From: Crocosphaera subtropica ATCC 51142
GTDB taxonomy: Bacteria > Cyanobacteriota > Cyanobacteriia > Cyanobacteriales > Microcystaceae
Direction of reading: 5' to 3'
Length of the DNA: 32,000 bases
Assembly: GCF_000017845.1 (NCBI RefSeq)
Contig: NC_010546.1
Coordinates: forward strand, 1,530,001-1,562,000
The notes beneath the pieces were generated by a model. That model was given only the letters and a program-made list of their open reading frames with translations, did not search any database and had not been told where the DNA came from. The translations under genes and the position numbers were made by a program. Positions 6,163 through 31,514 of the stretch are shown piece by piece; position 1 is the stretch's first letter; every line of letters starts with the position of its first letter.

Positions 6163-6225
6163 CTCCCTCTGCTTCCCCTCTCCCTACTCACTTCACAGTA
6201 ACGTTTATTTTTGTCTAGGTACTTA
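6163..6225 (+). repeat. Dispersed ~65-bp repeat, copy 1 (C/T-rich head + conserved core)
   Basis: Core CTCACTTCACAGTAACGTTTATTTTTGTCTAGGTACTTA (6187-6225) differs at 3 of 39 positions from the copy at 17843-17881. It is clearly related to the inverted copy at 30066-30128. All three copies are preceded by a C/T-rich tract. This copy ends 3 nt before the pyrF ATG. Confidence 0.75.
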
Positions 6226-6228
6226 TCG

Positions 6229-8337: not shown

Positions 8338-10062
8338 ATGGATATTATTGCTGGCTTAGATAAAGTTTCTTATTTTTATCCCAATTCAAAACAGCCGGTG
8401 TTAAGGGATATTTCGTTAGAGATTTATGAAGGGGAATTTTTAGGACTTATTGGTCCAACTGGTGCCGGTAAAACGACCCTTTGTTTAACATTGAATGGTA
8501 TTGTACCACAGTTTTATGGGGGTCGTTTTTTTGGTTATGTTACTGTTGCTGGTTTGGATACCTTGAAGCATCCGGTTAGTCATTTAGCTGGCTATGTTGG
8601 GGCGGTTTTTGAAGATCCAGAAACGCAATTAATTTCGACATCTGTAGAAAATGAGATCGCTTTTGCCTTGGAAAATTTATGTGTTGATCGAGATGAAATT
8701 ATAGATCGCATTCCTCATGTTTTAGAAGCCGTGAGATTAGAAGGAACAGAAAATAAACACCCTCAAGAATTATCTGGAGGACAAAAACAACGGTTAGCGA
8801 TCGCTGCGGCTTTGGCCTTACAACCTCGTTTATTAATATTAGATGAACCTACATCCCAACTCGATCCTATCGGGACAATGGAAGTGTTTTCAACCGTCAA
8901 AGAATTAAACAAAGAATTAGGGGTTACGATTGTTATGGTATCCCATGCAGCCGAAGAAATGGCCGAGTTTAGCGATCGCTTAATTTTACTCTCTGAAGGA
9001 GAAGTGATCGCCACAGGAAAACCCCATGAAATTTACTCAGAAATTGAGTTATTAGAACGTCATAATCTTCGTCCTCCTCAAGTAGCAAAAACGTTTTATG
9101 AGATTAAACAAAGAGGTTTAACTATCCCTAAAATACCGGTCACCTTAGAAGAAGGAAAAAAGGGATTAAAACAGTTACAAAATATCGCTTGTATTTCTCC
9201 TAAATTTGACTTTAAAACCATTCCTTATCGAGAGGATCAAATCCCTGTCTTATCAACGGAAAATTTAACCCATACTTATGAAGATGGAACTAAAGCATTG
9301 TATGGCATCTCTCTAAACATTTATGAGGGAGAATATTGTTTAATTATTGGACAAAATGGTGCAGGAAAAAGTACCCTTGTTAAACATTTTTTGAACTTGT
9401 TAAAACCCACTAAAGGAAGGGTGAGAATAAAAGATAAAGATACCAAAATTTTAACCGTTAGTGACTTAGCAAAATCCATCGGTTATGTAGCACAAAACCC
9501 CGATAATCAAATCTTTAGTATGACAGTAGGAGAAGAAGTCGCTTTTGCTTTAAATAATGTGGGATATGAAAAAGAAAAAATAGAAAAAAAAGTGACCCAA
9601 AGTCTCGAAGACATGGGGTTATTAGAATATAAAAAAGATCATCCCTTATCCTTACCCAAAGGTGATCGCGCTAGAATAATTATTGCTGCTATTTTAGCGA
9701 TGGAACCTGATATTATTATCTTCGATGAACCGACCACAGGACAAGATTATAAGGGATCTCGTGCTATTTTAGATGTGAGTCGTCAACTCCATCAAATGGG
9801 TAAAACCATTATTGTTATTACGCATCATTTATATTTAATGCCAGACTATACAGAACGAGTTATTTTGATGGGAAAAGGTACCGTATTATTAGATGCACCT
9901 ATTCGGCAAGCTTACCACAAAACAGACTTATTAGAATCCACTTATTTAACCCCTCCTCAAGCCGTTTTATTAGCTAAAACATTGAGTGAATTAAAGAATG
10001 AAAATTGTCTTTTATTAACCCCTAATGAACTAGCAGAGTGTTTCTATCATGATGAAGTTTGA
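8338..10062 (+). CDS. ECF transporter fused double ATPase (EcfA1-EcfA2 / CbiO-type)
   Basis: 574-aa ORF with two ABC nucleotide-binding domains. NBD1: GPTGAGKTT, LSGGQKQR, LLILDEPTSQLD. NBD2: GQNGAGKST, IIIFDEPTTGQD, but a degenerate signature (LSLPKGDRAR instead of LSGGQ). Confidence 0.92.
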   Translation: MDIIAGLDKVSYFYPNSKQPVLRDISLEIYEGEFLGLIGPTGAGKTTLCLTLNGIVPQFYGGRFFGYVTVAGLDTLKHPVSHLAGYVGAVFEDPETQLISTSVENEIAFALENLCVDRDEIIDRIPHVLEAVRLEGTENKHPQELSGGQKQRLAIAAALALQPRLLILDEPTSQLDPIGTMEVFSTVKELNKELGVTIVMVSHAAEEMAEFSDRLILLSEGEVIATGKPHEIYSEIELLERHNLRPPQVAKTFYEIKQRGLTIPKIPVTLEEGKKGLKQLQNIACISPKFDFKTIPYREDQIPVLSTENLTHTYEDGTKALYGISLNIYEGEYCLIIGQNGAGKSTLVKHFLNLLKPTKGRVRIKDKDTKILTVSDLAKSIGYVAQNPDNQIFSMTVGEEVAFALNNVGYEKEKIEKKVTQSLEDMGLLEYKKDHPLSLPKGDRARIIIAAILAMEPDIIIFDEPTTGQDYKGSRAILDVSRQLHQMGKTIIVITHHLYLMPDYTERVILMGKGTVLLDAPIRQAYHKTDLLESTYLTPPQAVLLAKTLSELKNENCLLLTPNELAECFYHDEV

Positions 10063-12147: not shown

Positions 12148-13668
12148 ATGACTGGGAAATCAACGGCGATCGCAACACAAGACTACGATGTTATCATCAT
12201 TGGTTCAGGAATGGGGGGGTTAGTCACAGCCACCCAACTCGCTGCAAAAGGGGCCAAAGTATTAGTGTTAGAAAAGTATTTAATTCCTGGGGGAAGTGCC
12301 GGTTATTTTGAACGGGAAGGTTATCATTTTGATGTAGGTGCATCCATGATTTTTGGTTTTGGCAAGGAAGGTACAACCAACCTATTAACCCGTGCTTTAG
12401 ATGCTGTTAACGTCAGCCTAGAAACCATCCCCGATCCTGTACAAATACATTACCATTTACCTAACAATTTAGAGCTAAAAGTACACAAAAATTATGATAA
12501 ATTTATTGACGAATTAACCGCTAAATTTCCCCATGAAAAGAAAGGAATTCGTCGCTTTTATGATGAGTGCTGGAAAGTTTTTAATTGTCTTAATGCAATG
12601 GAATTACTTTCTTTAGAAGAACCTAGGTACTTGATGAGAGTGTTTTTCCAGCATCCTTTTGCCTGTTTAGGGTTAGTGAAATATTTACCTCAAAATGTAG
12701 GGGATATTGCCCGTCGTTACATCAGTGATCCTGAACTTTTAAACTTCATTGATATGGAATGTTATTGCTGGTCAGTGGTTCCTGCGGATAAAACCCCAAT
12801 GATCAATGCTGGTATGGTATTTTCAGATCGGCATTATGGAGGAATCAATTATCCCAAAGGAGGAGTCGGAACCATTGCAGAAAAATTAGTAGAAGGGTTA
12901 GAAAAGTTGGGAGGAGAAATTCAATATAAAGCCCGTGTTACTAACATTTTAATGGAAACAGGAAAAGCGGTCGGAGTCCGATTAGCCAATGGAAAAGAAT
13001 ATCGGGCAAAACGCATTGTTTCCAATGCCACTCGTTGGGATACCTTTGAAAAATTGTTGCCTAAAAATGAGATGCCTACAAAAGAAGAAAAATGGCAACA
13101 ACGCTATGAAAAATCCCCTAGTTTTCTGAGTCTTCATTTAGGAGTTAAATCTGATATTTTACCGATAGGAACTGAATGTCATCATATTCTCTTAGAACAA
13201 TGGGAAGCGATGGAAGATGAACAAGGAACCATTTTTGTCTCAATTCCTACCCTTCTTGATCCCAGTTTAGCACCAGAAGATCATCACATAATTCATACCT
13301 TCACCCCTAGTTATATGAAAGAATGGGAAGGACTTTCTTCTCAAGCGTATCACCATAAAAAGGAAGCAGCAGCCAGTCATTTAGTTGAACGATTAGAAAA
13401 GATTTTTCCTGGATTAATTGAAGGGTTAGACTATCAAGAAGTTGGAACCCCACGCACTCACCGACGCTTTTTAGGTCGAGATCAAGGGACTTATGGACCA
13501 ATTCCCCGTCGCAAGTTACCAGGGTTGTTAGGAATGCCTTTTAATCGCACTGTTATCCCTGGATTATACTGTGTAGGAGATAGTACCTTTCCAGGTCAAG
13601 GACTCAATGCTGTGGCTTTTTCTGGGTTTGCTTGTAGCCATCGTATTGCTGTCGATTTAGGGTTATAG
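12148..13668 (+). CDS. crtH: Carotenoid (prolycopene) cis-trans isomerase
   Basis: 506-aa ORF. It is collinear with plant CRTISO and cyanobacterial CrtH as I recall them: [100 protein letters not shown]. Confidence 0.92.
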
Positions 13669-13939
13669 GTCTTAACAATTCATTGTTATATTTATTTGCA
13701 GTTCTTTAAGTGAATCTACCCTTGAAGAATACAGACTTATTGTTGATGATAAGTATATGTTGGTATTTTCTAAAGTTTAGAGTTAATCATGTTTTTTATC
13801 AGTTAAGATGGAAATTGAAACTAACTACCAAAATAAAAGTGATCTTTATTTTTGCTAACCATGTAATTGATTTAAAAAAAGATAGTGTGAATTTTTATGA
13901 GACAATTCAATTTTTTATTAATAAAGTGCTGTTAGTACA

Positions 13940-15316
13940 ATGTTACATTCTAACCAAAATAATAATGTCGAGAAATCCCTGCTTAAAGAAATCCTAAACC
14001 CATCAAATTATGATACAAATCTACAAAACATCACTCAGATAATTGCCGATTTTTTCTTAGTAGATTTTTGTCTAATTATTTCTGATTTCAATCATTTAAG
14101 GTATTTTTATAACTTAAGAAATTCTCATGCCAATAATTTTAAAATTTCTCCAAGCAAACTATCTAATTTAATACAAATTCCTTGGATAATAGAATTAAGA
14201 AGTGAGTCAAGATTAAAATCAATTAGAGACTTAAACCACAAAAAATATCAAAAATTGTTACCTTTTTTTGAAGAAATTGGAATCAAGACTTTATTAGGAA
14301 AAAATACTAACTTTAAAGGACAAACCAATGGCATTATTATTTTAGGTAAACAAGATCCTCATCAATGGAGTCAGAAAGAGAAAACAAAATTAAACGAAGT
14401 AGCTAAGATTGTTGGTATTTTATGTCATTTAAGTCAAGTGAACATGATTCTTGATGAAAAAAATCTTAGTAAAGATTCATCCTTTTCTCTAAGCAATATC
14501 CCTAAACTTCTAGAAGAAAATCCCATTCTGAAACTATGGTGGCAAAGTACAAGAAAACAATTAGAAAAACAATTAGAGTGGAATAGAAAAGTTATTTATA
14601 ATATGATCACTATTATGAGTGATCAAACTCGTAATCCCTTAGCTATTATTAAAATGGGAATTACGATTTTACAAACTAGAGAATTGTCTTCAGAAGATTT
14701 CAACAAAAGAATAACAATGTTAGAAGAAGCCTGGAGTAATCTAAACGAGATTAATGAAAAAATATTACAACTAAAACATTTAAAATCCCAAAATCTTTAC
14801 TCTAACTTAGTTGACACTAATTTAAAAGAATTGATTGAAAAGATCACTAAGTCTTATTCAAAGCAATGGCAGGAAGACTCTAAAAAATCTATAAAATTGA
14901 CCACAAATTTCAATATTAACCAAGAGGAATTAATCAATACAGATATTCAACATCTAACCTATATTATAGAAGAACTATTAACAAATGCCAGTAAATTTTC
15001 AGTCCCTAACTCCACTGTGACTTTATCAGTTACCCAAGAAAATGACACTAATAACTCAGAGATTATTATCACCTTTTCTAATATTAGTGAGTATGGTTGC
15101 CAAGACAATATAAATGAATTTTTTGAACCGTTTTATCGAGAGCAAATTGTCATAGATACGGCCATTCCTGGTATTGGAGTTGGACTGAATATTGTTAAAG
15201 ATTTAGTAGGACTACTCCAGGGAAAAATTAGCGTTGATTGCCTTCCCACAGAAAACCCTAAACATTGTAAAATTGTATTTAGATTGGTTCTTCCTCAATC
15301 ATTATCCTCATCATAA
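13940..15316 (+). CDS. GAF + histidine-kinase-like protein with degenerate H-box and G1 box (likely pseudo-kinase)
   Basis: 458-aa ORF. The N-terminus is GAF-like (FLVDFCLIIS...GIKTLLGK...NGIIILGKQDPHQWSQKEKTKL). The DHp-like segment reads IMSDQTRNPLAII where kinases have SHELRTPL, so His is replaced by Asp. N-box ELLTNASKFS, F-box FEPFYR and G2 GIGVGLNIVK are present. The G1 DxGxG position reads SNISEYG. Confidence 0.75.
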   Translation: MLHSNQNNNVEKSLLKEILNPSNYDTNLQNITQIIADFFLVDFCLIISDFNHLRYFYNLRNSHANNFKISPSKLSNLIQIPWIIELRSESRLKSIRDLNHKKYQKLLPFFEEIGIKTLLGKNTNFKGQTNGIIILGKQDPHQWSQKEKTKLNEVAKIVGILCHLSQVNMILDEKNLSKDSSFSLSNIPKLLEENPILKLWWQSTRKQLEKQLEWNRKVIYNMITIMSDQTRNPLAIIKMGITILQTRELSSEDFNKRITMLEEAWSNLNEINEKILQLKHLKSQNLYSNLVDTNLKELIEKITKSYSKQWQEDSKKSIKLTTNFNINQEELINTDIQHLTYIIEELLTNASKFSVPNSTVTLSVTQENDTNNSEIIITFSNISEYGCQDNINEFFEPFYREQIVIDTAIPGIGVGLNIVKDLVGLLQGKISVDCLPTENPKHCKIVFRLVLPQSLSSS

Positions 15317-17815: not shown

Positions 17816-17881
17816 CCCCTCTCCCTTCTCCCCACTCCCCCGCTCACTTGACAGTAACGTTTATTTTTGTCCAGGTGCTTA
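17816..17881 (+). repeat. Dispersed ~65-bp repeat, copy 2
   Basis: C-tract head CCCCTCTCCCTTCTCCCCACTCCCCCG, then core CTCACTTGACAGTAACGTTTATTTTTGTCCAGGTGCTTA. It lies between the HCP terminator and the 3' end of the convergent GT39 gene. Confidence 0.75.
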
Positions 17882-23466: not shown

Positions 23467-23558
23467 GATTGAGCGACTGTTTTTTCCTTTACGTCTAGTC
23501 CTCTAGGAAACCTTAAAATAAATTAAACTATCGTTTTTTTTACACGGAGTACGGCGTT

Positions 23559-23930
23559 GTGACCTTTCAAGAGTTTTGTTTATTGTTAGTTTCGGTGTTA
23601 ACCAGTGCTATGGGGCAATTATTCCTAAAAATGGGAGCCACCAAATTAGGAAAAGTGGATGCTAGTAATGCAGTGAGTCATATTTTAAATATCATTTTAA
23701 CGCCAGAACTCATCTTAGGACTCTCCTGTTATGGCTTGGGAGCGATCGCTTATATTCTCTTATTAACTCGTGTTAATTTAAGCGTTGCTGGTCCTTCGGC
23801 TTCGATTATTTACGTCTTCTCGGTCTTAATTGGTTATTTTGTCTTTAAAGAAACGATCCCTATTCATCGAGCTTTTGGCTTAGGGTTTATTGTCTGTGGG
23901 GTAGTTTTAGTGGTTTGGAAAGCCAATTAA
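23559..23930 (+). CDS. Small 4-TM EamA/SMR-like (DMT superfamily, ArnE/ArnF-like) membrane protein
   Basis: 123-aa ORF with a GTG start and four hydrophobic helices. Its size and pattern match half-size DMT transporters. Confidence 0.65.
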   Translation: MTFQEFCLLLVSVLTSAMGQLFLKMGATKLGKVDASNAVSHILNIILTPELILGLSCYGLGAIAYILLLTRVNLSVAGPSASIIYVFSVLIGYFVFKETIPIHRAFGLGFIVCGVVLVVWKAN

Positions 23931-23951
23931 AAAGAATTTTCTTTTACCCCC

Positions 23952-23981
23952 TTGCGTAAGTCTCATTAGCTGTGCTACGAT
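23952..23981 (+). promoter_or_regulatory. Candidate sigma70-type promoter for tRNA-Arg
   Basis: TTGCGT (23952-23957), an 18-nt spacer, then TACGAT (23976-23981). This lies about 22 nt upstream of the mature tRNA 5' end. It is a sequence-pattern call only. Confidence 0.3.
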
Positions 23982-24003
23982 AATTAATCGTTGAGAAAAA
24001 CAA

Positions 24004-24077
24004 GGGCTTGTAGCTTAGTGGATTAGAGCGTGTGGCTACGGACCACAAGGTCGGGGGTTCGAGTCCCTCCAAGCCCG
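24004..24077 (+). tRNA. tRNA-Arg (anticodon ACG)
   Basis: I folded the 74-nt cloverleaf by hand. Acceptor stem GGGCTTG/CAAGCCC with discriminator G. D-arm GCTT/GAGC. Anticodon arm TGTGG-CTACGGA-CCACA. Variable loop AGGTC. T-arm GGGGG-TTCGAGT-CCCTC. CCA is not encoded. Confidence 0.95.
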
Positions 24078-24092
24078 TCAAGATTAAACAAA

Positions 24093-24488
24093 ATGAGTAA
24101 TATGCGAGTGATTTCTACTGATAACGCTCCTGCTCCTGTGGGTCCCTATAATCAGGCGATCGCAGCACAAGGAGAGTTATTATTTATCTCTGGACAAATT
24201 CCCTTAGACCCCAAAACGGGGCAACTGGTTGGGGACACTGATATTAGTCAGCAAACCCAACAAGTGATGAAAAATATAGAAGCGATATTAAAAGCAGCGG
24301 GGGCAAATTGGCAGAATGTGGTTAAAACCACTGTTTTTCTGAGCAATTTAGAAAACTTCGCCCCTATGAATCAAGTTTATGCTCAATATTTCCCAGAAGC
24401 GACCGCACCGGCTCGAGCTTGTGTAGAAGTATCCCGTCTTCCTAAGGATGTTTTAGTCGAGATTGAATGTATTGCGGTCATTTCTTAG
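24093..24488 (+). CDS. ridA: RidA (YjgF/YER057c/UK114) family reactive-intermediate deaminase
   Basis: [56 protein letters not shown]. The track ORF starts at 24030 inside the tRNA, so I trimmed it to ATG 24093. Confidence 0.9.
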
Positions 24489-24503
24489 GTTACACCGTCA
24501 GGG

Positions 24504-24680
24504 TTAAATTAAATCAAACTGATGGCAAATCACCCCACACACAGCAGCTAAGACGGTAATTCCTAGAGCAAGAAACGGGTTTTGGCCTTGGGCAACCGCA
24601 AAGGAAGTAACAATACCAGCACCTAAACCAGCCGTTAAAGCAGCACTGACGTAGTCTTTATCTGTGTTTTTCTTATACAT
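24504..24680 (-). CDS. Small 2-TM glycine-zipper-like membrane protein (hypothetical)
   Basis: The ORF runs to TTG 24707, but I prefer ATG 24680 (MYKKNTDKDYVSAALTAGLGAGIVTSFAVAQGQNPFLALGITVLAAVCGVICHQFDLI). It has two short Gly/Ala-rich hydrophobic helices. Confidence 0.4.
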   Translation of the reverse strand: MYKKNTDKDYVSAALTAGLGAGIVTSFAVAQGQNPFLALGITVLAAVCGVICHQFDLI

Positions 24681-24829
24681 AGAGTTTGCTCGATTGCTTT
24701 CATACAATATTTTTGACGTTGCTCAAACGTAACATTCTCTTGCCCCGGACTGTAAGGAAATGGGTCGAATTGCAATCAAGCTTTAAATTTAGCCATATTT
24801 CTTAACAATAGCTGACCATAGAAAATCCT

Positions 24830-25108
24830 CTATTTCAAAACCGATGTAATAATAACCGTAATGGTTGCACTGGCAATTAAAGTAAAAGCAAGTTGCACAA
24901 CCCATTGTGTTGCTTGTCGATAGTCAGAAAAACGTTCATCAAACCGCTTCATTTCGGATGATAAGGTTTCAACATCGGATGCTAAGTGTTCGACATCAGA
25001 GGATAAGTGTTCAACATCAGATGTCAGTTTTTCTACATTACCTGTAAGTTTATCCAGTTTTTGGATGACATCGGTTAAAGTGGGTTCTGGGTTAGGGGTT
25101 GTGGTCAT
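24830..25108 (-). CDS. Tail-anchored coiled-coil protein (XhlA-like architecture), hypothetical
   Basis: Start set at ATG 25108 (MTTTPNPEPT...); the track uses TTG 25156. It has heptad repeats (LTSDVEHLSSDVEHLASDVETLSSEMKRF) and a single C-terminal TM helix (WVVQLAFTLIASATITVIITSVL). Confidence 0.6.
   Translation of the reverse strand: MTTTPNPEPTLTDVIQKLDKLTGNVEKLTSDVEHLSSDVEHLASDVETLSSEMKRFDERFSDYRQATQWVVQLAFTLIASATITVIITSVLK
24956..25039 (-). repeat. Four in-frame imperfect 21-bp tandem repeats inside the coiled-coil gene
   Basis: Plus-strand units are GGATGATAAGGTTTCAACATC, GGATGCTAAGTGTTCGACATC, AGAGGATAAGTGTTCAACATC and AGATGTCAGTTTTTCTACATT. Each encodes one heptad (SDVEHLx). Confidence 0.75.
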
Positions 25109-25162
25109 TATTATTTCTACTCTTAAAATTTTCTTTTTTTTACTATTATATAGCAAAATTTA

Positions 25163-25184
25163 GGGACATAATCTATTATGTCCC
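25163..25184. other. Perfect 10-bp inverted repeat (hairpin/operator candidate) between the ParB-like and coiled-coil genes
   Basis: GGGACATAAT ct ATTATGTCCC. On the minus strand it follows the ParB-like stop (25219) and is followed by TAAATTTTG. Confidence 0.5.
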
Positions 25185-25218
25185 TGTTGTTATTAATTGA
25201 TTTAATCAGTATCTAATC

Positions 25219-25932
25219 TTATTGATTAGAAAAGTGATCAATGATTTTTATCATTCTTTTCTCTGCTATACCGTCTACTCGACTAACTACATCACTACAA
25301 GACTTAAACATTCCATTTTTTTCTCGTTCATTGATAATTTTTTCAGGAATATTCTTGGGAACTTTAATACGACGTAAATGAGATATAAGCGTTGATAATT
25401 CAAAGGTATTAAGTGCTTCTAAACAGTCAATGGGTTTAGGAAGACGTTCTTTGATTTCTGTGAGTTGCATATTTAGTATTTCAATTTCCCTTTTATAATT
25501 ATCTTTTACCTCTTTAAGTTGTCTTTCAAACCTCGCCTCAATATTATTTAAACGAGATTCCATATTTAAGAGTTTTTGATCGGAATTATCGTTTACTGTT
25601 GGTATAGGTGGTAAAATTTGAGCAGATTTTCGGAAAATTTCTATCTGTGTTTTGATCGCATCTTCTTTGTTGTCTTCAATAATAAAAGCACTGATCATTT
25701 CTCCCTTTCTGGGATCAATTTCTCTTGCTCTTACAGCAGTATAATATTCAAAATATCCAGAGATAACCTGATAAGATTCTGAATTGTTTCCCTCTAATAT
25801 AATAGGGTTAATAATGCCTTCTGCGCTTAAAATTGCTTGGGCAGCTTTGTCGATGTCATCTTCATTAAATTGAGAACGTTCTACTGATGATTGAATTCGT
25901 TTTACAGACACCAATGAAATTAGCAATTTCAT
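25219..25932 (-). CDS. Degenerate ParB N-terminal-domain protein + coiled coil + ComEA-like helix-hairpin-helix domain
   Basis: 237-aa ORF. The N-terminus is collinear with ParB/Spo0J box I-II (VSVKRIQSS..RSQFNEDDIDKAAQAILSAEGIINPIIL....YQVISG), but the GERRxRA arginine patch reads GYFEYYTA. The central coiled coil is LLNMESRLNNIEARFERQLKEVKDNYKREIEILNMQLTEIKERL. The C-terminal HhH pattern is LNTFELSTL...IPEKIINEREKNGMFKSCSDVVSRVDGIAEKRMIKIID. An AGGAGA Shine-Dalgarno lies within the 3' end of the upstream gene. Confidence 0.75.
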   Translation of the reverse strand: MKLLISLVSVKRIQSSVERSQFNEDDIDKAAQAILSAEGIINPIILEGNNSESYQVISGYFEYYTAVRAREIDPRKGEMISAFIIEDNKEDAIKTQIEIFRKSAQILPPIPTVNDNSDQKLLNMESRLNNIEARFERQLKEVKDNYKREIEILNMQLTEIKERLPKPIDCLEALNTFELSTLISHLRRIKVPKNIPEKIINEREKNGMFKSCSDVVSRVDGIAEKRMIKIIDHFSNQ

Positions 25933-25934
25933 AA

Positions 25935-27281
25935 TTATTCTCCTATTTTTTCTAATATTTCATCTGCTAAAATTTCAAACTCTTGTGCTGATTTAGAATT
26001 GGGTTTAAAGTCTAAAACTGAGATAGGTTCAGGAATCTCTATATCTCCTACAATTTGCATTTTTTCAGAACATTTAGCTAAATCATCCCTATCATAAATT
26101 ACAGTTTCCATCATCGGTATTTGATAACGTTGAGGAATAACTTCTAAACGTTTTCTTAGAGTAGATTGTACAAATCTTGCGTTAGTAGATATTTTACAAG
26201 CTAAAATTCCTAAAACTTCGATAGAGTCTTTCTTTATAAATCTTTTTGAACCATCATTTTGCTTAATAAAGTTTTTTACATTTGTGAGTCCCTGATTAGC
26301 AAAAGGTTTTAAATCAGAAGGAATAATTAAATAGTCAGCAGTAATTAAAGCAATACTAGCATATAAATTTAAAGAGGGAGGAGTGTCTATAAGTACAATA
26401 TCATATTTATCTTTTACTTTTTCTAGTTTTTCATTTAAAATAAACCGACTTTGTGCAATAGGAATAAGTTGTTTTTCATATTCCATCAAGTCAATATGAG
26501 AAGGAATAACATGAATCTCAGGATCAGAAAATTGAGATTTTATAGCAACTTCTTCAATACTATAAAAATCTTCTGATTGTAAGATATGAAGAATATTACA
26601 ATCTTTAATATTATCAAATTCTTCATCTTCAAATTTGACTAAACCAGTGGCAAAAGTTGTATTAGCTTGACTATCTAAATCAATGACTAAAACTCGTTTT
26701 CCTTTCTTGCTAAAAGCAGCAGCTAAATTAACAACAGTAGTTGTTTTTCCAACACCACCCTTATTATGATAAACGGCAATAACTTTCATGGGTAATTTTT
26801 TAGACTCCTTAATAGATGTTTGAGAAACTTTAGGAATAGAAAGGGATGAAGAAGTAGAGAACTTTTGACTTAAACTCTCCTTACCAATTAAAGCATTTAT
26901 TTTGCTGATATTGTTAGCAAGGTTTTCCCCTTGACAATAAAAGATAAACTTTAATTTATCTTTTTGCCGTTGATAAATTCGGAATTCTTTACCATTGGTT
27001 AATACCCCATAAAAACTTTGCGTTTGAATCAAATAATGTCCCAAACGACGCACATGATGATCTAAATTTTCTTGAGGGTGTTTCGCTTCAATGACAACAC
27101 AAGAAGAAAAATTCTTCATTTTTTTAGAAGCAACTGTCAAGAAATCTAAGCGAATATTGCCATAGATAACTTCTTGATGCCAATTATCAGAAGAATAACC
27201 TAATTTTGGGAGTAAATATTGAACAATTAGCTTACTCTCTACTTCCCTTTCATTACGACAGGATTTAGGATGAAATTGCAA
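25935..27281 (-). CDS. Fusion protein: HsdR_N-like PD-(D/E)xK restriction-endonuclease-fold domain + ParA/MinD-family deviant Walker-A ATPase
   Basis: 448-aa ORF with a TTG start. Residues ~10-105 read NEREVESKLIVQYLLPKLGY...IRLDFLTVA...CVVIEAKHPQ...YGVLTNGKEFRIYQ. This fits the HSDR_N_2 pattern, with the D...E-x-K residues present. Residues ~165-448 carry KVIAVYHNKGGVGKTTTVVNLAAA (KGGxxGKT), VLVIDLDSQANTT and YDIVLIDTPPSL. Its stop lies 2 nt from the ParB-like start. Confidence 0.8.
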   Translation of the reverse strand: MQFHPKSCRNEREVESKLIVQYLLPKLGYSSDNWHQEVIYGNIRLDFLTVASKKMKNFSSCVVIEAKHPQENLDHHVRRLGHYLIQTQSFYGVLTNGKEFRIYQRQKDKLKFIFYCQGENLANNISKINALIGKESLSQKFSTSSSLSIPKVSQTSIKESKKLPMKVIAVYHNKGGVGKTTTVVNLAAAFSKKGKRVLVIDLDSQANTTFATGLVKFEDEEFDNIKDCNILHILQSEDFYSIEEVAIKSQFSDPEIHVIPSHIDLMEYEKQLIPIAQSRFILNEKLEKVKDKYDIVLIDTPPSLNLYASIALITADYLIIPSDLKPFANQGLTNVKNFIKQNDGSKRFIKKDSIEVLGILACKISTNARFVQSTLRKRLEVIPQRYQIPMMETVIYDRDDLAKCSEKMQIVGDIEIPEPISVLDFKPNSKSAQEFEILADEILEKIGE

Positions 27282-27617
27282 TGGACTATTTCCTCAATAA
27301 CACAAGATAGAGGATAAAATTAAATAAGAATAAGAGTTAGGAACAAGTAAGAATGCAAAATCAACTACTTTTCAACAGTTTATAATTACTATTATCTCTA
27401 AGTATCTACTGAATAGAAAATGGTAAGATTGCTGAAGATTTTAACAGTTTTTTGAGTCTTCCTAAGTAGTTATACATAAACCAGAGAAGTTATATTAAGA
27501 ATGACGACACAGTTAACACACAATCTTAATTTGCTCTTTTTTAGATGATAGTTAACTTAGTTAAATTCCTCATGTTATACTAATTCGTAACTTTTACCAT
27601 AGAGGAGATTAAACTTA

Positions 27618-29750
27618 ATGTCCAGAAAAGAGGCAGATTTTTCCTTAGACGAAGTAGAAGAAAAATATAGAAAATTAGTTCACTTAAATCCCGAAAAAGC
27701 TGAATATCGATATTTCTTAGCAAAAGTATTGTGGGAAAAAGGAGATAAACAAGGAGCTTTTGCTGCTTATCAAAAAACCTTTGCCTTACCCTCTCCTCCT
27801 ACTGAAGCTTATAGAGATTTTGGTAAAATTTTACAAAAAGAATATAATCTCAAAAGATTGATCAATTTTTATACAGAAGGATTAGAACTTCCTTACACAA
27901 AAGTCTTACAATACTTGGATTTCTTAGAAGTTAAAGATTATGAAAAAATCGGAGAAATCTTTGAAAATAAAAAAGAAACTGCTAAACTATGGACAACGTA
28001 TCTGATAGGAATTCAACATCATCCTAGTGCTAAGAGTCTGTATCTTAAATTAATAAAATTGTTTTTAAAAACAGTAGAAACTCTAAATAATAAGTTTAAT
28101 AGACACTTCAAATTAAAACAAACCAATTCAGACCAAAAAACTAAAAAATTAAATTCTCATTCTTTACAAAATGAAGAAATTTGGAACTTGATCAATAGCC
28201 CAAACTTAATGATCAAACAAAATACTACAAAAACAGAAAACAAAAAGCTTGTAAAAAGTTTAATCGTTAACTGTAACTATACAATCATTAACTTAGATAA
28301 TATAACAGATTTACAAAGAAACGAATTAAAGTTATTAGGGATTGAGACTAATTATTTAAAACAAAATCAATATAGTGAACTCATAAAAAGTAAACAAAAA
28401 AATAGTTCCAGCCATGACAATAAACCTCTTGTTGCTGTAGAAGCTGATCAACGTAATCAATTTCAACTATCTTCAATTATTAATCAATATTTTAGTGCTA
28501 TTTGTCCTTATACCGGAAAGGATTTATCTTCTAACCAATCTTTGTTAGTCTTACCTCAAGGATATAACTCTTGGATATTTTATCGTTTTGTAAGTCAGAA
28601 GAATGTTTTTTATATTGCTACAGGAAAACCCGATAGTGGTTTTCCAAAATCTTTTATTTATTTTCCAAAAGAAGAAATAGCGATTATATTATTTGATCAA
28701 TTTAATGAAAAAGACATTAAAGAAGCTATTGAACTCTTCAAAAGAAGCGTGTTCAAAAATTGGAATGATATCAAAAAATACCTTAATAATTCTCTACATA
28801 AACAAGTTATTATCCCGATTAGTTTTTGGCATTTTGCTCATCATTATTGGAATGAGTTAACAGGAATTTATAAACTCTATGATAATGATGTTTTAGAACA
28901 AGTAGATAAATTTTTAGTAGGTACAGAACATTATGGTGAGATTAAAGATATTTTTCCTGAAATACCAGAAAATAAAATTGATAAAATATCGTCTAAATAT
29001 CTGAACAAAGAAATACTTAAAAATAATTATTTTGCTCTAAGAGTCGGTTCAAATTTCATAACAGAAGACTTAGCAAACCGTATTTATAAAGTTTCACGAC
29101 AACAAGCGACCCCTCAGTTTTTATCTGAAATTGAAAGCATCAAAAAAAAGCATTTTCCTTTATTATTAGTCACTATACGATTAGATACAAGGGTTTGGAT
29201 TTCTCAAATTAATGGAATTGTAAATATTGTTAAAAAATTAGCTGAAGACTTTCCTAAAATTGGACTCGTTATCGATGGGTTTTCTTTACCTTGTGGTTTA
29301 GTTGGATTATCTTGGTATTGGGCGCAAAAGTGTATTGAAAAAGAAACACAAGCTAGTTTAGAAATTCGTTCTTTATTACCTGCTGAGATTCCTGTCTATG
29401 ATATTGTTGGTTCTACTTTATACGAAAATGTTATTTGGAATCATGTTATAGATTTATATTTAGCACAACATGGTTCAGCCCAACATAAAATTGGTTGGAT
29501 TGCTAATAAACCAGGGGTTATTCATACTAATAAATCAACTTTTTCTGCTCCTCACTTATTATCAGTAACGACTACAGCAAAAGAAAATAGCATTGAGCCG
29601 ATTCTTATTCCTGAAGAACATATTATTGCTTTAGAAGAAATCCATAAACCAAATAAAAATGATAAACGAAAAAATTTAGAAAACTATGATTGTAATTGGG
29701 AAATTATGTATAATGAACTGTTTAAATTAATTCAAAAAATTAATAATTAG
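27618..29750 (+). CDS. Large orphan protein: N-terminal TPR-like helices, Lys/Asn-rich linker, uncharacterised ~430-aa C-terminal region
   Basis: 710-aa ORF with a strong Shine-Dalgarno (AGAGGAG, 27601-27607). It is transcribed divergently from the nuclease-ParA gene. TPR-like segment: EKYRKLVHLNPEKAEYRYFLAKVLWEKGDKQGAFAAYQKTFAL. I could not assign a family to the C-terminal part. Its motifs FWHFAHHYWNELTG and LLLVTIRLDTRVWISQINGIV...KIGLVIDGFSLP loosely recall GT-B-type transferases. Confidence 0.7.
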   Translation: MSRKEADFSLDEVEEKYRKLVHLNPEKAEYRYFLAKVLWEKGDKQGAFAAYQKTFALPSPPTEAYRDFGKILQKEYNLKRLINFYTEGLELPYTKVLQYLDFLEVKDYEKIGEIFENKKETAKLWTTYLIGIQHHPSAKSLYLKLIKLFLKTVETLNNKFNRHFKLKQTNSDQKTKKLNSHSLQNEEIWNLINSPNLMIKQNTTKTENKKLVKSLIVNCNYTIINLDNITDLQRNELKLLGIETNYLKQNQYSELIKSKQKNSSSHDNKPLVAVEADQRNQFQLSSIINQYFSAICPYTGKDLSSNQSLLVLPQGYNSWIFYRFVSQKNVFYIATGKPDSGFPKSFIYFPKEEIAIILFDQFNEKDIKEAIELFKRSVFKNWNDIKKYLNNSLHKQVIIPISFWHFAHHYWNELTGIYKLYDNDVLEQVDKFLVGTEHYGEIKDIFPEIPENKIDKISSKYLNKEILKNNYFALRVGSNFITEDLANRIYKVSRQQATPQFLSEIESIKKKHFPLLLVTIRLDTRVWISQINGIVNIVKKLAEDFPKIGLVIDGFSLPCGLVGLSWYWAQKCIEKETQASLEIRSLLPAEIPVYDIVGSTLYENVIWNHVIDLYLAQHGSAQHKIGWIANKPGVIHTNKSTFSAPHLLSVTTTAKENSIEPILIPEEHIIALEEIHKPNKNDKRKNLENYDCNWEIMYNELFKLIQKINN

Positions 29751-30065
29751 CCTTTCAGCTTATCCCGAACTCACGTTACTATGGTAAATTACTCAAGTAA
29801 TAACCGTGATATTAAGCGTTAAACAATAATTGTTGAATATTCAACCTTTAGAGAGAGGAATCAGTGTTTTAGGATTGCTATAAATAATTCATAAGCTGGC
29901 TTTGTCTTTCATCCAAAGCTACTTAGCTATTAAACCCATGAATACCAAAAATTGCGAGCATGGTCCGATTATTATTATACCAAATCCGCTTATCATCGTA
30001 GAGTAATCTTCTTTCTCCCTCTGCCTTCTCAAGATGATTGTCTACTATCTAAAGCGGATCTAGTA

Positions 30066-30128
30066 TAAGTACCTGGACAAACAAAACGTTACTGGTTGAG
30101 TGAGGGAGCGGAGGGGTGGGGAGAAGAG
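30066..30128 (-). repeat. Dispersed ~65-bp repeat, copy 3 (inverted orientation)
   Basis: The reverse complement reads CTCTTCTCCCCACCCCTCCGCTCC CTCACTCAACCAGTAACGTTTTGTTTGTCCAGGTACTTA. It is more diverged than copies 1 and 2 but clearly homologous. It lies in the 447-nt gap between the AT-rich block and the bactofilin-like gene. Confidence 0.7.
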
Positions 30129-30197
30129 TTCCGGCTTAGTTACATTTCTTAAGATAGTTAATTTTATTTATGTCCGACCACTTAGGAGCGATCCAAA

Positions 30198-31514
30198 ATG
30201 AAACGATCATCGGTGGCAATTAGACAAAAGCTTTTAATTCTCGTTAGTTTAGTGCTTCTAGTCGGACTGTTTTTAGTTTCATCCCTTGGAGCGATGAAAA
30301 ATCGAAGAGGAGAACAGATCACCATCGCTCAAAATGAAATTATTGACGACGATCTATATGTGTTTGGTGCGATGGTAACAATCGACGGTACGGTAAGAGG
30401 GGATGTTATTGGAGCGGGTCGGCAAATTACCGTTAATGGCACGGTTGAAGGGGATCTCGTTGCTGCAGGTCAGGCCATAGTGATCAACGGCACCGTCAAT
30501 GACGACGCACGAATTGCGGGTCAGGTTTTGCAGATAGGCACTAATGCTCGCATTGCTGATGATCTCGTGGCAGCTGGTGGCAGTTTCGAGAGCAAAACCG
30601 GTAGCACGATCGCCGGAGATTTGTCATTTGCAGCGGCGCAAGCACGGTTAATGGGAACGGTACAGCAGCAGGTGAAAGGGACAATGGCTGCTCTGGAACT
30701 AGGGGGTACGGTCGGTCAAAATATGAATGTTACTATAGGTAGCGATCGCCCTTTAGTCGATCCTCCCTTCACTCCACCCTCTCCTGTTGCCATTCCAGTC
30801 GTCGCAACCGGGTTAACTATTACTGACTTCGCTCAAATTGGAGGCGAGTTAAACTACCGCTCTGGCAGTGAAGCAACCATCAGTTCGGCTGCCCAAATTG
30901 CAGGAGGAGTTAATCGAGAGGGGATCAAACCTGCAACCGCTAGACATACAGTTGAACCTGCTTTAGTGGTATGGGGAAACGTGCAACGTTGGATTACATT
31001 GTTCTTGGTTGGCGTATTGGGATTGTGGCTGGTTCCAGGTTGGATTCAACAGCTAGGCACCACGGTTCAGGCTAAACCCTTACCTAGCCTCGGTTGGGGA
31101 ATAGTGACGGGTTTGATTGTTGGGACTTTGGCGATCGCCGTTCCCGTGATAACCATTATCCTGACAGCTATTTTAGGCTCCTTCCTCTGGAATCTAGTGC
31201 CGTTAATTATGGGTGTTGGACTGTTAACCAATTCAATCTTGGTGATTGGTTTCTTGTTATTTATCAGTTATGTGCCTCCTATTGTTGTTAGTTTTCTGGG
31301 GGGACAATGGTTATTGCACTCCGTTAAGGGCAATGGGTTCTCGAAGCGGATTGTTAAACTTGCTGTTGGCCTACTAATATTCGTATTCCTAAGTGCCATT
31401 CCTCTGTTGGGGGGATTAATTTATCTGATTGTCATCCTGCTTGGTTTAGGCTCACTCTGGATTTTGCTGCAAAACCGTTCCCCATCCAGTCTCAATTATA
31501 GAGAAAATTATTGA
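30198..31514 (+). CDS. Membrane-anchored bactofilin-like (polymer-forming beta-helix repeat) protein
   Basis: 438-aa ORF with a TAGGAG Shine-Dalgarno. It has an N-terminal TM helix and about 200 aa of bactofilin/DUF583-like repeats (VFGAMVTIDGTVRGDVIGAGRQITVNGTVEGDLVAAGQAIVINGTVNDDARIAGQVLQIG). About 5 C-terminal TM helices follow. Confidence 0.75.
   Translation: MKRSSVAIRQKLLILVSLVLLVGLFLVSSLGAMKNRRGEQITIAQNEIIDDDLYVFGAMVTIDGTVRGDVIGAGRQITVNGTVEGDLVAAGQAIVINGTVNDDARIAGQVLQIGTNARIADDLVAAGGSFESKTGSTIAGDLSFAAAQARLMGTVQQQVKGTMAALELGGTVGQNMNVTIGSDRPLVDPPFTPPSPVAIPVVATGLTITDFAQIGGELNYRSGSEATISSAAQIAGGVNREGIKPATARHTVEPALVVWGNVQRWITLFLVGVLGLWLVPGWIQQLGTTVQAKPLPSLGWGIVTGLIVGTLAIAVPVITIILTAILGSFLWNLVPLIMGVGLLTNSILVIGFLLFISYVPPIVVSFLGGQWLLHSVKGNGFSKRIVKLAVGLLIFVFLSAIPLLGGLIYLIVILLGLGSLWILLQNRSPSSLNYRENY

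Follow-up and report, generated by a model that had tools for sequence, protein, structure and literature searches.

The stretch analysed here is a window of 32,000 nucleotides from the chromosome of Crocosphaera subtropica (Cyanothece) ATCC 51142 (contig NC_010546.1, positions 1,530,001 to 1,562,000). It carries, just after a tRNA-Arg(ACG) gene and ridA, a run of five genes, cce_1547 to cce_1551 (GenBank ACB50897 to ACB50901, by exact look-ups), and around them an AT-rich stretch without a single HIP1 octamer (GCGATCGC). This stretch is probably not an island, but a composite of three independent chromosomal units, the core of which is an old cyanobacterial operon, parAB, encoding a ParA-type ATPase fused to a nuclease-fold domain (cce_1550) and a ParB-like partner (cce_1549). 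The low GC content, the very low GC at third codon positions (GC3) and the near-absence of HIP1 are family traits of parAB, and not the marks of a recent transfer. The sole accessory gene of the block is cce_1551 (orf710), which is patchily distributed. The original prediction had taken the five genes for one horizontally acquired module, either a defence or DNA-handling system or the remnant of the maintenance region of a mobile element; of these proposals, DNA handling is the one that suits the parAB pair.

The pair has a broad distribution within the cyanobacteria. In the species-representative genomes scanned (one per species), at least 569 relatives of the fusion were confirmed, and 80 loci were retrieved. 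These were sampled from Crocosphaera, Nostoc, Calothrix, Fischerella, Scytonema, Microcoleus, Tychonema, Symploca, Floridaenema, Aphanothece and others, so that the Chroococcales, Nostocales, Oscillatoriales and further orders are represented. In each of the 80 loci, parA is followed directly by the ParB-like gene, the only neighbour that is universal, and no second copy of the pair was present in any locus examined. All the named members of the fusion are cyanobacterial, from the Thermosynechococcaceae, Leptolyngbyaceae and Pseudanabaena through to the Nostocales, the most distant being those of Myxacorys, Pseudocalidococcus (Thermosynechococcaceae) and an Oscillatoriales metagenome-assembled genome (MAG). 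The same applies to the named matches of the ParB-like protein (117 of 117, including Pseudanabaena, Leptolyngbyaceae and Spirulina). The ParA identities track taxonomy, in what appears to be a vertical pattern, with 77-91% inside Crocosphaera, 62-65% for the Nostocales and 57-59% for Microcoleus. The pair seems to be an uncharacterised variant ParA/ParB-like operon with no close homologue outside the cyanobacteria among the named members.

Mobile replicons are almost devoid of this operon. None of 72,556 plasmids encodes the fusion, its N-terminal domain joined to a ParA, or the ParB-like protein, and no plasmid homologue exceeds 35% identity, such homologues being restricted to the ATPase domain. 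Among 2.9 million viral contigs, a single ParB-like match was found (IMGVR_UViG_3300042471_001765, locus L093, 8001-8510). The open reading frame (ORF) upstream of it has only 233 residues and could encode a ParA that has no nuclease domain.

The position of the operon is also old. Crocosphaera chwakensis CCY0110 (L094) and the 'unicellular cyanobacterium SU3' (L014) share the order EamA, tRNA-Arg(ACG), ridA, transmembrane (TM) gene, ssr2422, parB, parA, and therefore the arrangement from the tRNA to parA is older than the split of these species. Past parA, both have a small nucleotidyltransferase gene followed by ilvD, and both lack orf710 and the bactofilin-like gene that lies beyond it in the window. 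A check suggested with the original prediction was whether relatives without the block carry ridA directly beside the bactofilin-like gene; what C. chwakensis and SU3 keep after ridA is the TM gene, ssr2422, parB and parA. Synteny and vertical conservation, which the original prediction itself regarded as fatal to an island, are found for four of the five genes, with the exception of orf710. Likewise, joint occurrence of the five genes, another suggested check, holds for parA and parB, which are joined in all 80 loci, and not for orf710, which does not accompany parAB beyond the nearest relatives.

The composition of parAB is as constant as its gene order. In all 72 loci with enough flank, the GC content of the pair lies under that of its flanks of about 20 kb (mean difference -0.068, range -0.035 to -0.100), and in 49 of these 72 no other 2 kb of the neighbourhood is as AT-rich as the pair. 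Its GC content tracks that of the host, from 0.30 in Crocosphaera through 0.32-0.35 in Nostocales to about 0.40 in Microcoleus. The GC3 of parA is lower than that of 626 of the 687 flanking ORFs of at least 200 residues, and in 31 of 71 loci none of these ORFs lies below it. The density of HIP1 falls from 0.757 per kb in the flanks to 0.025 per kb in the pairs (4 sites in about 158 kb), and this is not explained by base composition, since GC-matched 2-kb segments of the flanks still average 0.745 sites, with 51% of the segments empty, whereas parAB holds 0.05 per pair and 76 of the 80 pairs have none. The depletion amounts to about 15- to 30-fold and, together with the low GC, is seen in every order sampled. 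Since the same GC offset is found in all 72 loci, AT-richness is no evidence of recent import, and the AT-rich, HIP1-poor state throughout the family indicates that the signal in the window was inherited with the operon.

In the window itself, positions 25219-29750 have a GC content of 0.290, against 0.378 in the rest, and form its lowest 4.5 kb. The GC3 values of parA (0.167) and orf710 (0.177) are the two lowest, that of parB is 0.214, and the values of the remaining genes lie between 0.19 and 0.43. Once normalised for GC, the tetranucleotide profile shows its strongest deviation at 25-28 kb (r = 0.57-0.64), although a patch at 13-15 kb comes close (r = 0.64-0.68). The atypical composition noticed at first (GC 0.29 against 0.38, the two lowest GC3 values, the most deviant tetranucleotide profile) is therefore real, and the single-line GC figures given for it are reproduced at all five lines (21.7% at 26401, 30% at 28801, and 30, 43 and 37% at 9301, 12241 and 18301). 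However, a block of five AT-rich genes was too wide a description: parB, parA and orf710 fit it, whereas cce_1547 (GC 0.417) and cce_1548 (0.355) are normal. The distances in relative synonymous codon usage within the window are driven by gene length and are uninformative.

The recount of HIP1 agrees with the earlier one, with exactly 20 sites in the window and none between 24163 and 30742. The sites that bracket the block lie at 24156-24163 and 30742-30749, and the gap of 6586 nt between them is, as claimed, the largest, the next one being 3481 nt. Random placement of 20 sites over 32 kb yields a gap this long or longer in 21% of the trials (P = 0.21), and so the gap exists but had to be rejected as stand-alone evidence of an island. 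The caution that the background GC is itself patchy was justified too, as a second low-GC patch lies at 13.5-15.3 kb (13500-15316; GC 0.26-0.29), is deviant in its tetranucleotides and has a HIP1 gap of its own of 3.5 kb. It holds a 95-aa ORF and an ordinary histidine-kinase-like gene (HATPase_c), and its presence means that the compositional patchiness of this genome extends beyond the block.

The start codon of cce_1549 is located 2 nt past the stop codon of parA, and the two genes are translationally coupled. A hairpin with a T-run downstream of parB presumably marks the end of their transcription unit. On the other side, the leader of parA holds a short CCTC...GAGG inverted repeat overlapping the ribosome-binding site and is conserved in the Crocosphaera loci, including those with a divergent ATPase allele; it could serve as an operator or regulatory leader.

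The N-terminal domain of cce_1550 matches HSDR_N_2 (PF13588) marginally, with 25.4 bits against a cut-off of 25, and in tblastn searches it matches HsdR-N-domain proteins with 29-33% identity. Its putative catalytic triad D...ExK (D46, E65 and K67) and the residues E11, E13 and E15 are invariant in 120 of 120 homologues. When the domain alone was compared, free of filters, with 1.84 billion representative proteins, only 101 were found, and 24 of the 26 with at least 430 residues also had the KGGVGKT motif. The domain thus appears to be a tight subfamily that occurs almost only as a fusion to ParA. The ATPase domain that follows carries this signature-lysine Walker A motif, KGGVGKT, and K174, K179, D201, D203 and D299 are invariant in the same 120 homologues. 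Its top sequence matches in the PDB are Soj/ParA proteins (6iub, 1.7e-20), and the McdA-like entries 6non and 6noo follow at about 2e-8. The plasmid-type families are far off, with 50 bits for NCBIfam SopA against a cut-off of 725, and RepA likewise far below its own cut-off.

The AlphaFold2 model of cce_1549 (pLDDT 84) consists of a ParB/Srx fold (residues 1-104), a 47-residue helix (117-163) and a tandem helix-hairpin-helix (HhH) region (170-236). In Foldseek, the N-terminal domain finds ParB (7bnk), Noc (7ol9), KorB, Spo0J and PadC over about 95-108 residues with a probability of 1.0, and the HhH part finds the HhH domains of TEFM and KIF22. The GxxR phosphate motif of ParB Box II, as described in a survey of ParB-fold proteins (PMC12704722), is replaced in cce_1549 by G-x-F-E-Y-Y-A-A. 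Nearly all of the 30 aligned family members have G-[DYH]-F-E-Y-Y-A-A there, and none has the arginine. The ParB-like protein has lost this CTP-binding motif. Neither a helix-turn-helix (HTH) domain nor an N-terminal LG-R/K-GL ParA-binding peptide was found in the 30-sequence alignment or in the model. The C-terminal module differs among members, being HhH, DUF655 or Rho_N/SAP, a variability that fits generic, rather than sequence-specific, binding to nucleic acids. No parS came up, the canonical parS motif not having been searched for. The domain calls made beforehand (a nuclease-ParA fusion, a ParB-HhH protein, a tail-anchored coiled-coil protein and a TPR protein) all hold.

Two variations on the operon were seen elsewhere in the family. 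In 37 loci within L023-L086 (Microcoleus, Tychonema and other Oscillatoriales; L072 d1 is an example), a second ParB_N-like gene of about 370 aa lies on the same strand one or two genes downstream of parB, the operon there being parA-parB-parB2. In 16 loci (L031, L009, L012, L050, L056 and L061, for example), from several Nostocales, Floridaenema and Aphanothece, the gene next upstream of the fusion gene is divergently oriented and encodes a further ParA-like ATPase, of the ordinary kind and with about 313 aa (MGLIVATVNMKGGVGKT...).

Several known systems resemble this pair in part. With chromosomal ParABS (Soj/ParA and Spo0J/ParB), it shares the order parA then parB, the deviant signature-lysine Walker A of cce_1550, the best PDB matches of this protein and the ParB/Srx fold of the cce_1549 N-terminal domain. 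Contrary to them, cce_1550 bears an additional N-terminal PD-(D/E)xK domain, and cce_1549 has a coiled coil and HhH in place of GxxR, the LG-R/K-GL peptide and the parS-binding HTH domain, other ParB-like members ending in Rho_N/SAP or DUF655. Type Ia ParA proteins (P1 ParA, F SopA) also have an extension ahead of the ATPase domain, which binds DNA specifically for autoregulation. However, the extension of cce_1550 is folded like a restriction endonuclease, keeps D...ExK intact and is not a winged HTH, and its family is chromosomal only, with no representative in the plasmid set. The N-terminal domain of HsdR in type I restriction enzymes (HSDR_N/HSDR_N_2; EcoR124I class, PMC3424549) is related by the HSDR_N_2 match and the conserved D...ExK; in cce_1550, however, the domain is joined to a dimerising ParA ATPase and not to an SF2 translocase, and no methylase or specificity subunit is encoded nearby. 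Finally, the non-canonical ParB-fold proteins PadC, Noc and KorB combine a ParB-CTPase fold with lineage-specific C-terminal modules, as cce_1549 does, but they keep the NTP-binding motifs, whereas cce_1549 is without GxxR. The terms helix-hairpin-helix, HhH and ComEA do not occur in the main text of the survey of such proteins (PMC12704722).

As for its role, the parAB pair probably acts on the nucleoid or the chromosome. This is favoured because it is found only on chromosomes, has no second copy in any locus examined, is restricted to one phylum yet extends deep into that phylum, and shows strong purifying selection. A 2020 review states that a classical ParA/B/S mechanism of segregation is missing from cyanobacteria (PMC7766704). 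It is possible, though we hold this with low confidence, that the operon is the long-missing system that organises or segregates the multi-copy cyanobacterial chromosomes, or processes them by means of an ATP-gated dimeric nuclease, the ParA recognising or cutting DNA and the ParB-like protein serving as a non-specific, DNA-bound activator. In the mechanism that we propose for the operon as part of the main reading, ATP-bound dimers of cce_1550 would sit on the nucleoid DNA, and a coiled-coil dimer of the ParB-like protein would hold DNA non-specifically through its HhH region and stimulate ATPase turnover. The nuclease-fold domain would take the place of the DNA-binding domain of type Ia ParA and would provide the recognition of a site or structure, with possible ATP-gated cleavage once the dimer brings two nuclease-fold domains together. 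Together, these parts would make up a non-canonical system for positioning or processing the multi-copy chromosome. The available portions of the McdAB survey (PMC7182216) and of the ParB-fold survey (PMC12704722) do not describe the fusion pair.

A number of observations weigh against reading parAB as an old, vertically held chromosomal operon, and are gathered here. About 40 of the 80 loci come from Microcoleus or close relatives, a phylogenetic redundancy by which the statistics overstate their independence. The compositional comparisons for C. subtropica cover the 32 kb of the window. The Pfam match to the nuclease domain is exactly at threshold, and the function of the pair is entirely inferred. 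No publication on an HSDR_N-ParA fusion, on the cce_ genes or on ssr2422 was found in the full-text literature, a coverage outside which many subscription papers fall, so that a prior description is possible. Within Crocosphaera, moreover, both the alleles and the flanks of the operon vary. The parA N-terminal domains of SU3 (L014, 10001-12198) and C. chwakensis (L094, 10001-12189) are 97-99% identical to that of Cyanothece BG0011, but their ATPase domains are only 49-54% identical to those of every other family member; for comparison, the ATPase domains of Nostoc are 71-75% identical to that of cce_1550. Their parB is co-divergent, encoding 273-277 aa with about 40% identity in the N-terminal part only. 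To judge from these sequences, the ATPase-plus-ParB module has clearly been replaced at the same locus behind an unchanged nuclease domain, and the swap appears to have taken place by recombination in the linker. A third, intermediate variant of parA is represented by P0012. In a Crocosphaera MAG (L087, 22-876; L088, 795-1649), ssr2422-parB-parA-orf710 lies between different flanks, with two 71-aa ssr2422-like genes and a ParE toxin gene on one side and MoeB-like, radical-SAM and DEAD-helicase genes on the other. The DNA homology between the window and this orf710-bearing MAG runs from 24832 to 29743 and is broken on both sides, and both edges of the segment are rearrangement points within the genus. 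Lastly, there is no explanation for the persistent AT-richness and HIP1 depletion of parAB, which would also fit a cassette circulating among cyanobacteria.

The explanation that best survives beside our own takes up this last point, and proposes that the pair is a selfish or conflict cassette (a nuclease-armed defence or addiction-like element) kept by frequent lateral replacement, mostly between relatives. Such replacement would keep parAB permanently AT-rich and HIP1-poor, as is observed in every lineage beyond the GC-matched controls, and the persistent AT-richness, the chimeric alleles of SU3 and C. chwakensis, in which parB co-varies with the ATPase module, and the fast evolution of ParB fit a swappable specificity cassette. 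ParB evolves faster than ParA everywhere, with 32-50% identity where ParA has 57-65%. The invariant catalytic triad and the differing flanks among Crocosphaera would also be in line with this proposal. However, identities follow taxonomy, the GC content of the pair follows that of the host with a constant offset (0.30 in Crocosphaera, 0.40 in Microcoleus), and the loci examined hold no second copy. Furthermore, plasmids carry no such pair and viral contigs essentially none, no defence-system model was matched, and no defence-island neighbourhood recurs. On this balance, we consider a circulating cassette unlikely.

That the five genes are a single acquired module integrated beside tRNA-Arg, as a defence island or a maintenance remnant, is very improbable. 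Its appeal came from the low GC, the lowest GC3 and the most deviant tetranucleotide profile of the window, the 6.6-kb HIP1 gap (P≈0.21, as seen above), the tRNA 430 nt upstream and the patchy distribution of orf710. However, four of the five genes and the tRNA are syntenic in the two sister species, two of the five have normal GC, the parAB pair reaches deep into the phylum and is AT-rich everywhere alike, and orf710 has no link to parAB outside the nearest relatives. The tRNA-Arg gene is indeed where it was said to be, at 24004-24077, but it occupies the same place in both sister species and is not an integration site. The caveat that there is neither an integrase nor a tRNA-derived direct repeat also holds: no ORF or Pfam match for an integrase or recombinase was found between 24004 and 30200, and in 23500-30400 the only candidate flanking or tRNA-derived direct repeats are short, AT-rich and chance-like. 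No structured RNA other than tRNA-Arg(ACG) was detected in 23.5-30.5 kb. The dispersed repeat reported at the distal edge, 30066-30128, has partial copies at 6196-6226 and 17825-17881, but these are short (about 30 nt at 90%); no copy of it matches at the other edge of the block, and it bounds no mobile element. The assignment to a defence system was dropped, as the matches in PADLOC-DB v2 are confined to the Walker A motif (PDC-M28B, residues 158-204), with none for the ParB-like protein or orf710. The same was done with the remnant of plasmid or mobile-element maintenance, in view of the absence of the fusion, the N-domain-ParA and the ParB-like protein from plasmids and of the single locus among the viral contigs.

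Equally, it is scarcely credible that the pair is McdAB, the system for carboxysome positioning, or another ParA/MinD system that places a protein cargo: even though McdA is a ParA-type ATPase widespread in β-cyanobacteria, with a signature lysine in Type 2 McdA (PMC7182216), and cce_1549 has a central coiled coil, this identity was rejected on the architecture of the partner, a well-folded ParB/Srx plus HhH protein unlike the disordered McdB described there, and on the ATPase being much nearer to Soj (6iub, 1.7e-20) than to 6non/6noo (about 2e-8), while no carboxysome gene recurs among the neighbours of parAB.

The remaining parts of the block follow histories of their own. The protein encoded by cce_1551 is 100% identical to a Crocosphaera subtropica protein. 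Among 5.8 billion proteins it has no more than 20 homologues, with identities of 61-72% in a few Crocosphaera and of 27-40% elsewhere, so the word orphan once applied to it was not apt. None of the 80 parAB loci has a homologue, its linkage to parAB being limited to the closest Crocosphaera. Its distant relatives are not encoded beside parAB, but amid genes for NDP-sugar synthesis, epimerases, GT4 glycosyltransferases and tetratricopeptide repeat (TPR)-sulfotransferases. The DNA homology with the relatives that are without orf710 ends at 27419-27480, just past the conserved parA leader. Given its absence from SU3 and C. chwakensis and these breaks in homology, orf710 is a single-gene indel at a synteny breakpoint. 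Pfam recognises only one weak TPR (TPR_16) in it, but the AlphaFold2 model (pLDDT 83.6) predicts a TPR superhelix at about residues 1-190 and two Rossmann-like α/β domains at about 290-710. We regard the protein as a putative TPR plus GT-B-like glycosyltransferase, similar in layout to OGT and SPINDLY (TPR plus GT41 GT-B). The predicted succession of domains is alike, the top Foldseek matches of the model are human OGT (E = 8e-8, about 750 columns) and plant SPINDLY, and its relatives lie inside glycan-modification clusters. Speaking against this assignment, the TM-scores to these structures are only about 0.17-0.2, a sequence profile compared with the PDB matches by the TPR part alone, and outside that part there is no sequence match to glycosyltransferase families in Pfam or the PDB. 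The annotations differ in length, with 673 aa in RefSeq (WP_243397393) and 710 aa in GenBank, the difference in the start covering 27618-27728; the ATG at 27618 is kept in a 707-aa homologue from the Crocosphaera MAG (L087), and this speaks for the longer form.

Both cce_1547 and cce_1548 encode small membrane proteins that are conserved in cyanobacteria, and the composition of the two genes is normal. The claim that none of the five products is housekeeping is not borne out. Cluster members of cce_1547 are present in C. chwakensis and other Crocosphaera MAGs, and SU3 has a 92% identical protein at the same position. Cce_1548 belongs to the 'ssr2422 family thylakoid membrane protein' (NCBIfam NF053525, 111.2 bits against a cut-off of 38). 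Its SDVEHL heptads form a coiled coil, a TM helix lies at the C-terminus, and the protein is 78-80% identical in L008 and L014 (SU3). Three 21-nt tandem repeats at 24960-25019 code for the SDVEHL-type heptads, and the homologue in L008 appears to have more of them.

Table 1. Features of the tRNA-Arg to cce_1551 region, with positions in the 32,000-nt window.
Feature	Position	Strand	Evidence or remark
tRNA-Arg(ACG)	24004..24077	+	ARAGORN; Rfam tRNA 66.6 bits; context only
ridA, RidA/L-PSP family, 128 aa	24102..24488	+	Pfam Ribonuc_L-PSP 5.8e-47; SU3 protein 95% identical; context
cce_1547, small two-TM protein, 58 aa called (ORF to 24707 = 67 aa)	24504..24680	-	GC 0.417
cce_1548, ssr2422-family thylakoid membrane protein, 92 aa called (ORF to 25156)	24830..25108	-	GC 0.355
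Hairpin plus T-run, terminator-like, between parB and cce_1548	25161..25186	.	Terminator scan, detected on both strands, 10-11 bp stem
cce_1549, ParB-like partner, 237 aa	25219..25932	-	Weak Pfam ParB_N + HHH_6; AlphaFold2; Foldseek
cce_1550, ParA-type ATPase domain, residues 164-448	25935..26792	-	Pfam AAA_31 6.3e-60, CbiA 3.2e-19
cce_1550, variable low-complexity linker, residues 136-163	26793-26876	-	
cce_1550, N-terminal PD-(D/E)xK (HSDR_N_2-like) nuclease-fold domain, residues 1-135	26877..27281	-	Pfam HSDR_N_2
parA leader/promoter region, conserved, about 200 nt	27282..27496	-	Alignment of six Crocosphaera-lineage upstream regions
cce_1551 (orf710), 710 aa, divergent from parA	27618..29750	+	GC 0.279
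G-rich intergenic repeat element, distal edge	30066..30128	.	Partial copies elsewhere in the window

The rest of the window is ordinary chromosome, with genes for a GGDEF/EAL regulator, gamma-glutamyltranspeptidase, an ECF-type ABC transporter, an ABC1 kinase, a PMT_2 glycosyltransferase, PAP2, a pentapeptide protein, an EamA-like protein, RidA and a SpoIIAA-like protein. A 152-aa ridA ORF starting at 24030 overlaps the tRNA-Arg gene; in public assemblies, the true start is the ATG at 24102, giving 128 aa. Positions 30198-31514 (GC 0.47) encode a 438-aa protein with a weak bactofilin/FapA β-solenoid in its N-terminal half and a polytopic membrane region in its C-terminal half. A PadC-like link between parAB and this bactofilin-like gene was considered; the gene adjoins parAB in none of the 80 loci and is no conserved neighbour, so the link is unsupported.

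These results carry a caution, as an AT-rich, HIP1-free patch beside a tRNA gene resembled an island, and yet the anomaly belongs to an ancient, vertically held operon. The build of the parAB pair is unusual, with a nuclease-fold ParA whose triad is invariant, a ParB fold without the CTP motif and interchangeable tails for non-specific DNA binding. The GC minimum and HIP1 depletion of the pair and the swap of ATPase and parB within Crocosphaera are relevant to how HIP1 and GC content are maintained in cyanobacterial genomes. If the operon were indeed the long-missing chromosome system, the avoidance of HIP1 and the minimal GC would reflect a functional tie of the system to its own locus or to HIP1, rather than transfer, and the pair would bear on the question of how polyploid cyanobacterial chromosomes are distributed.

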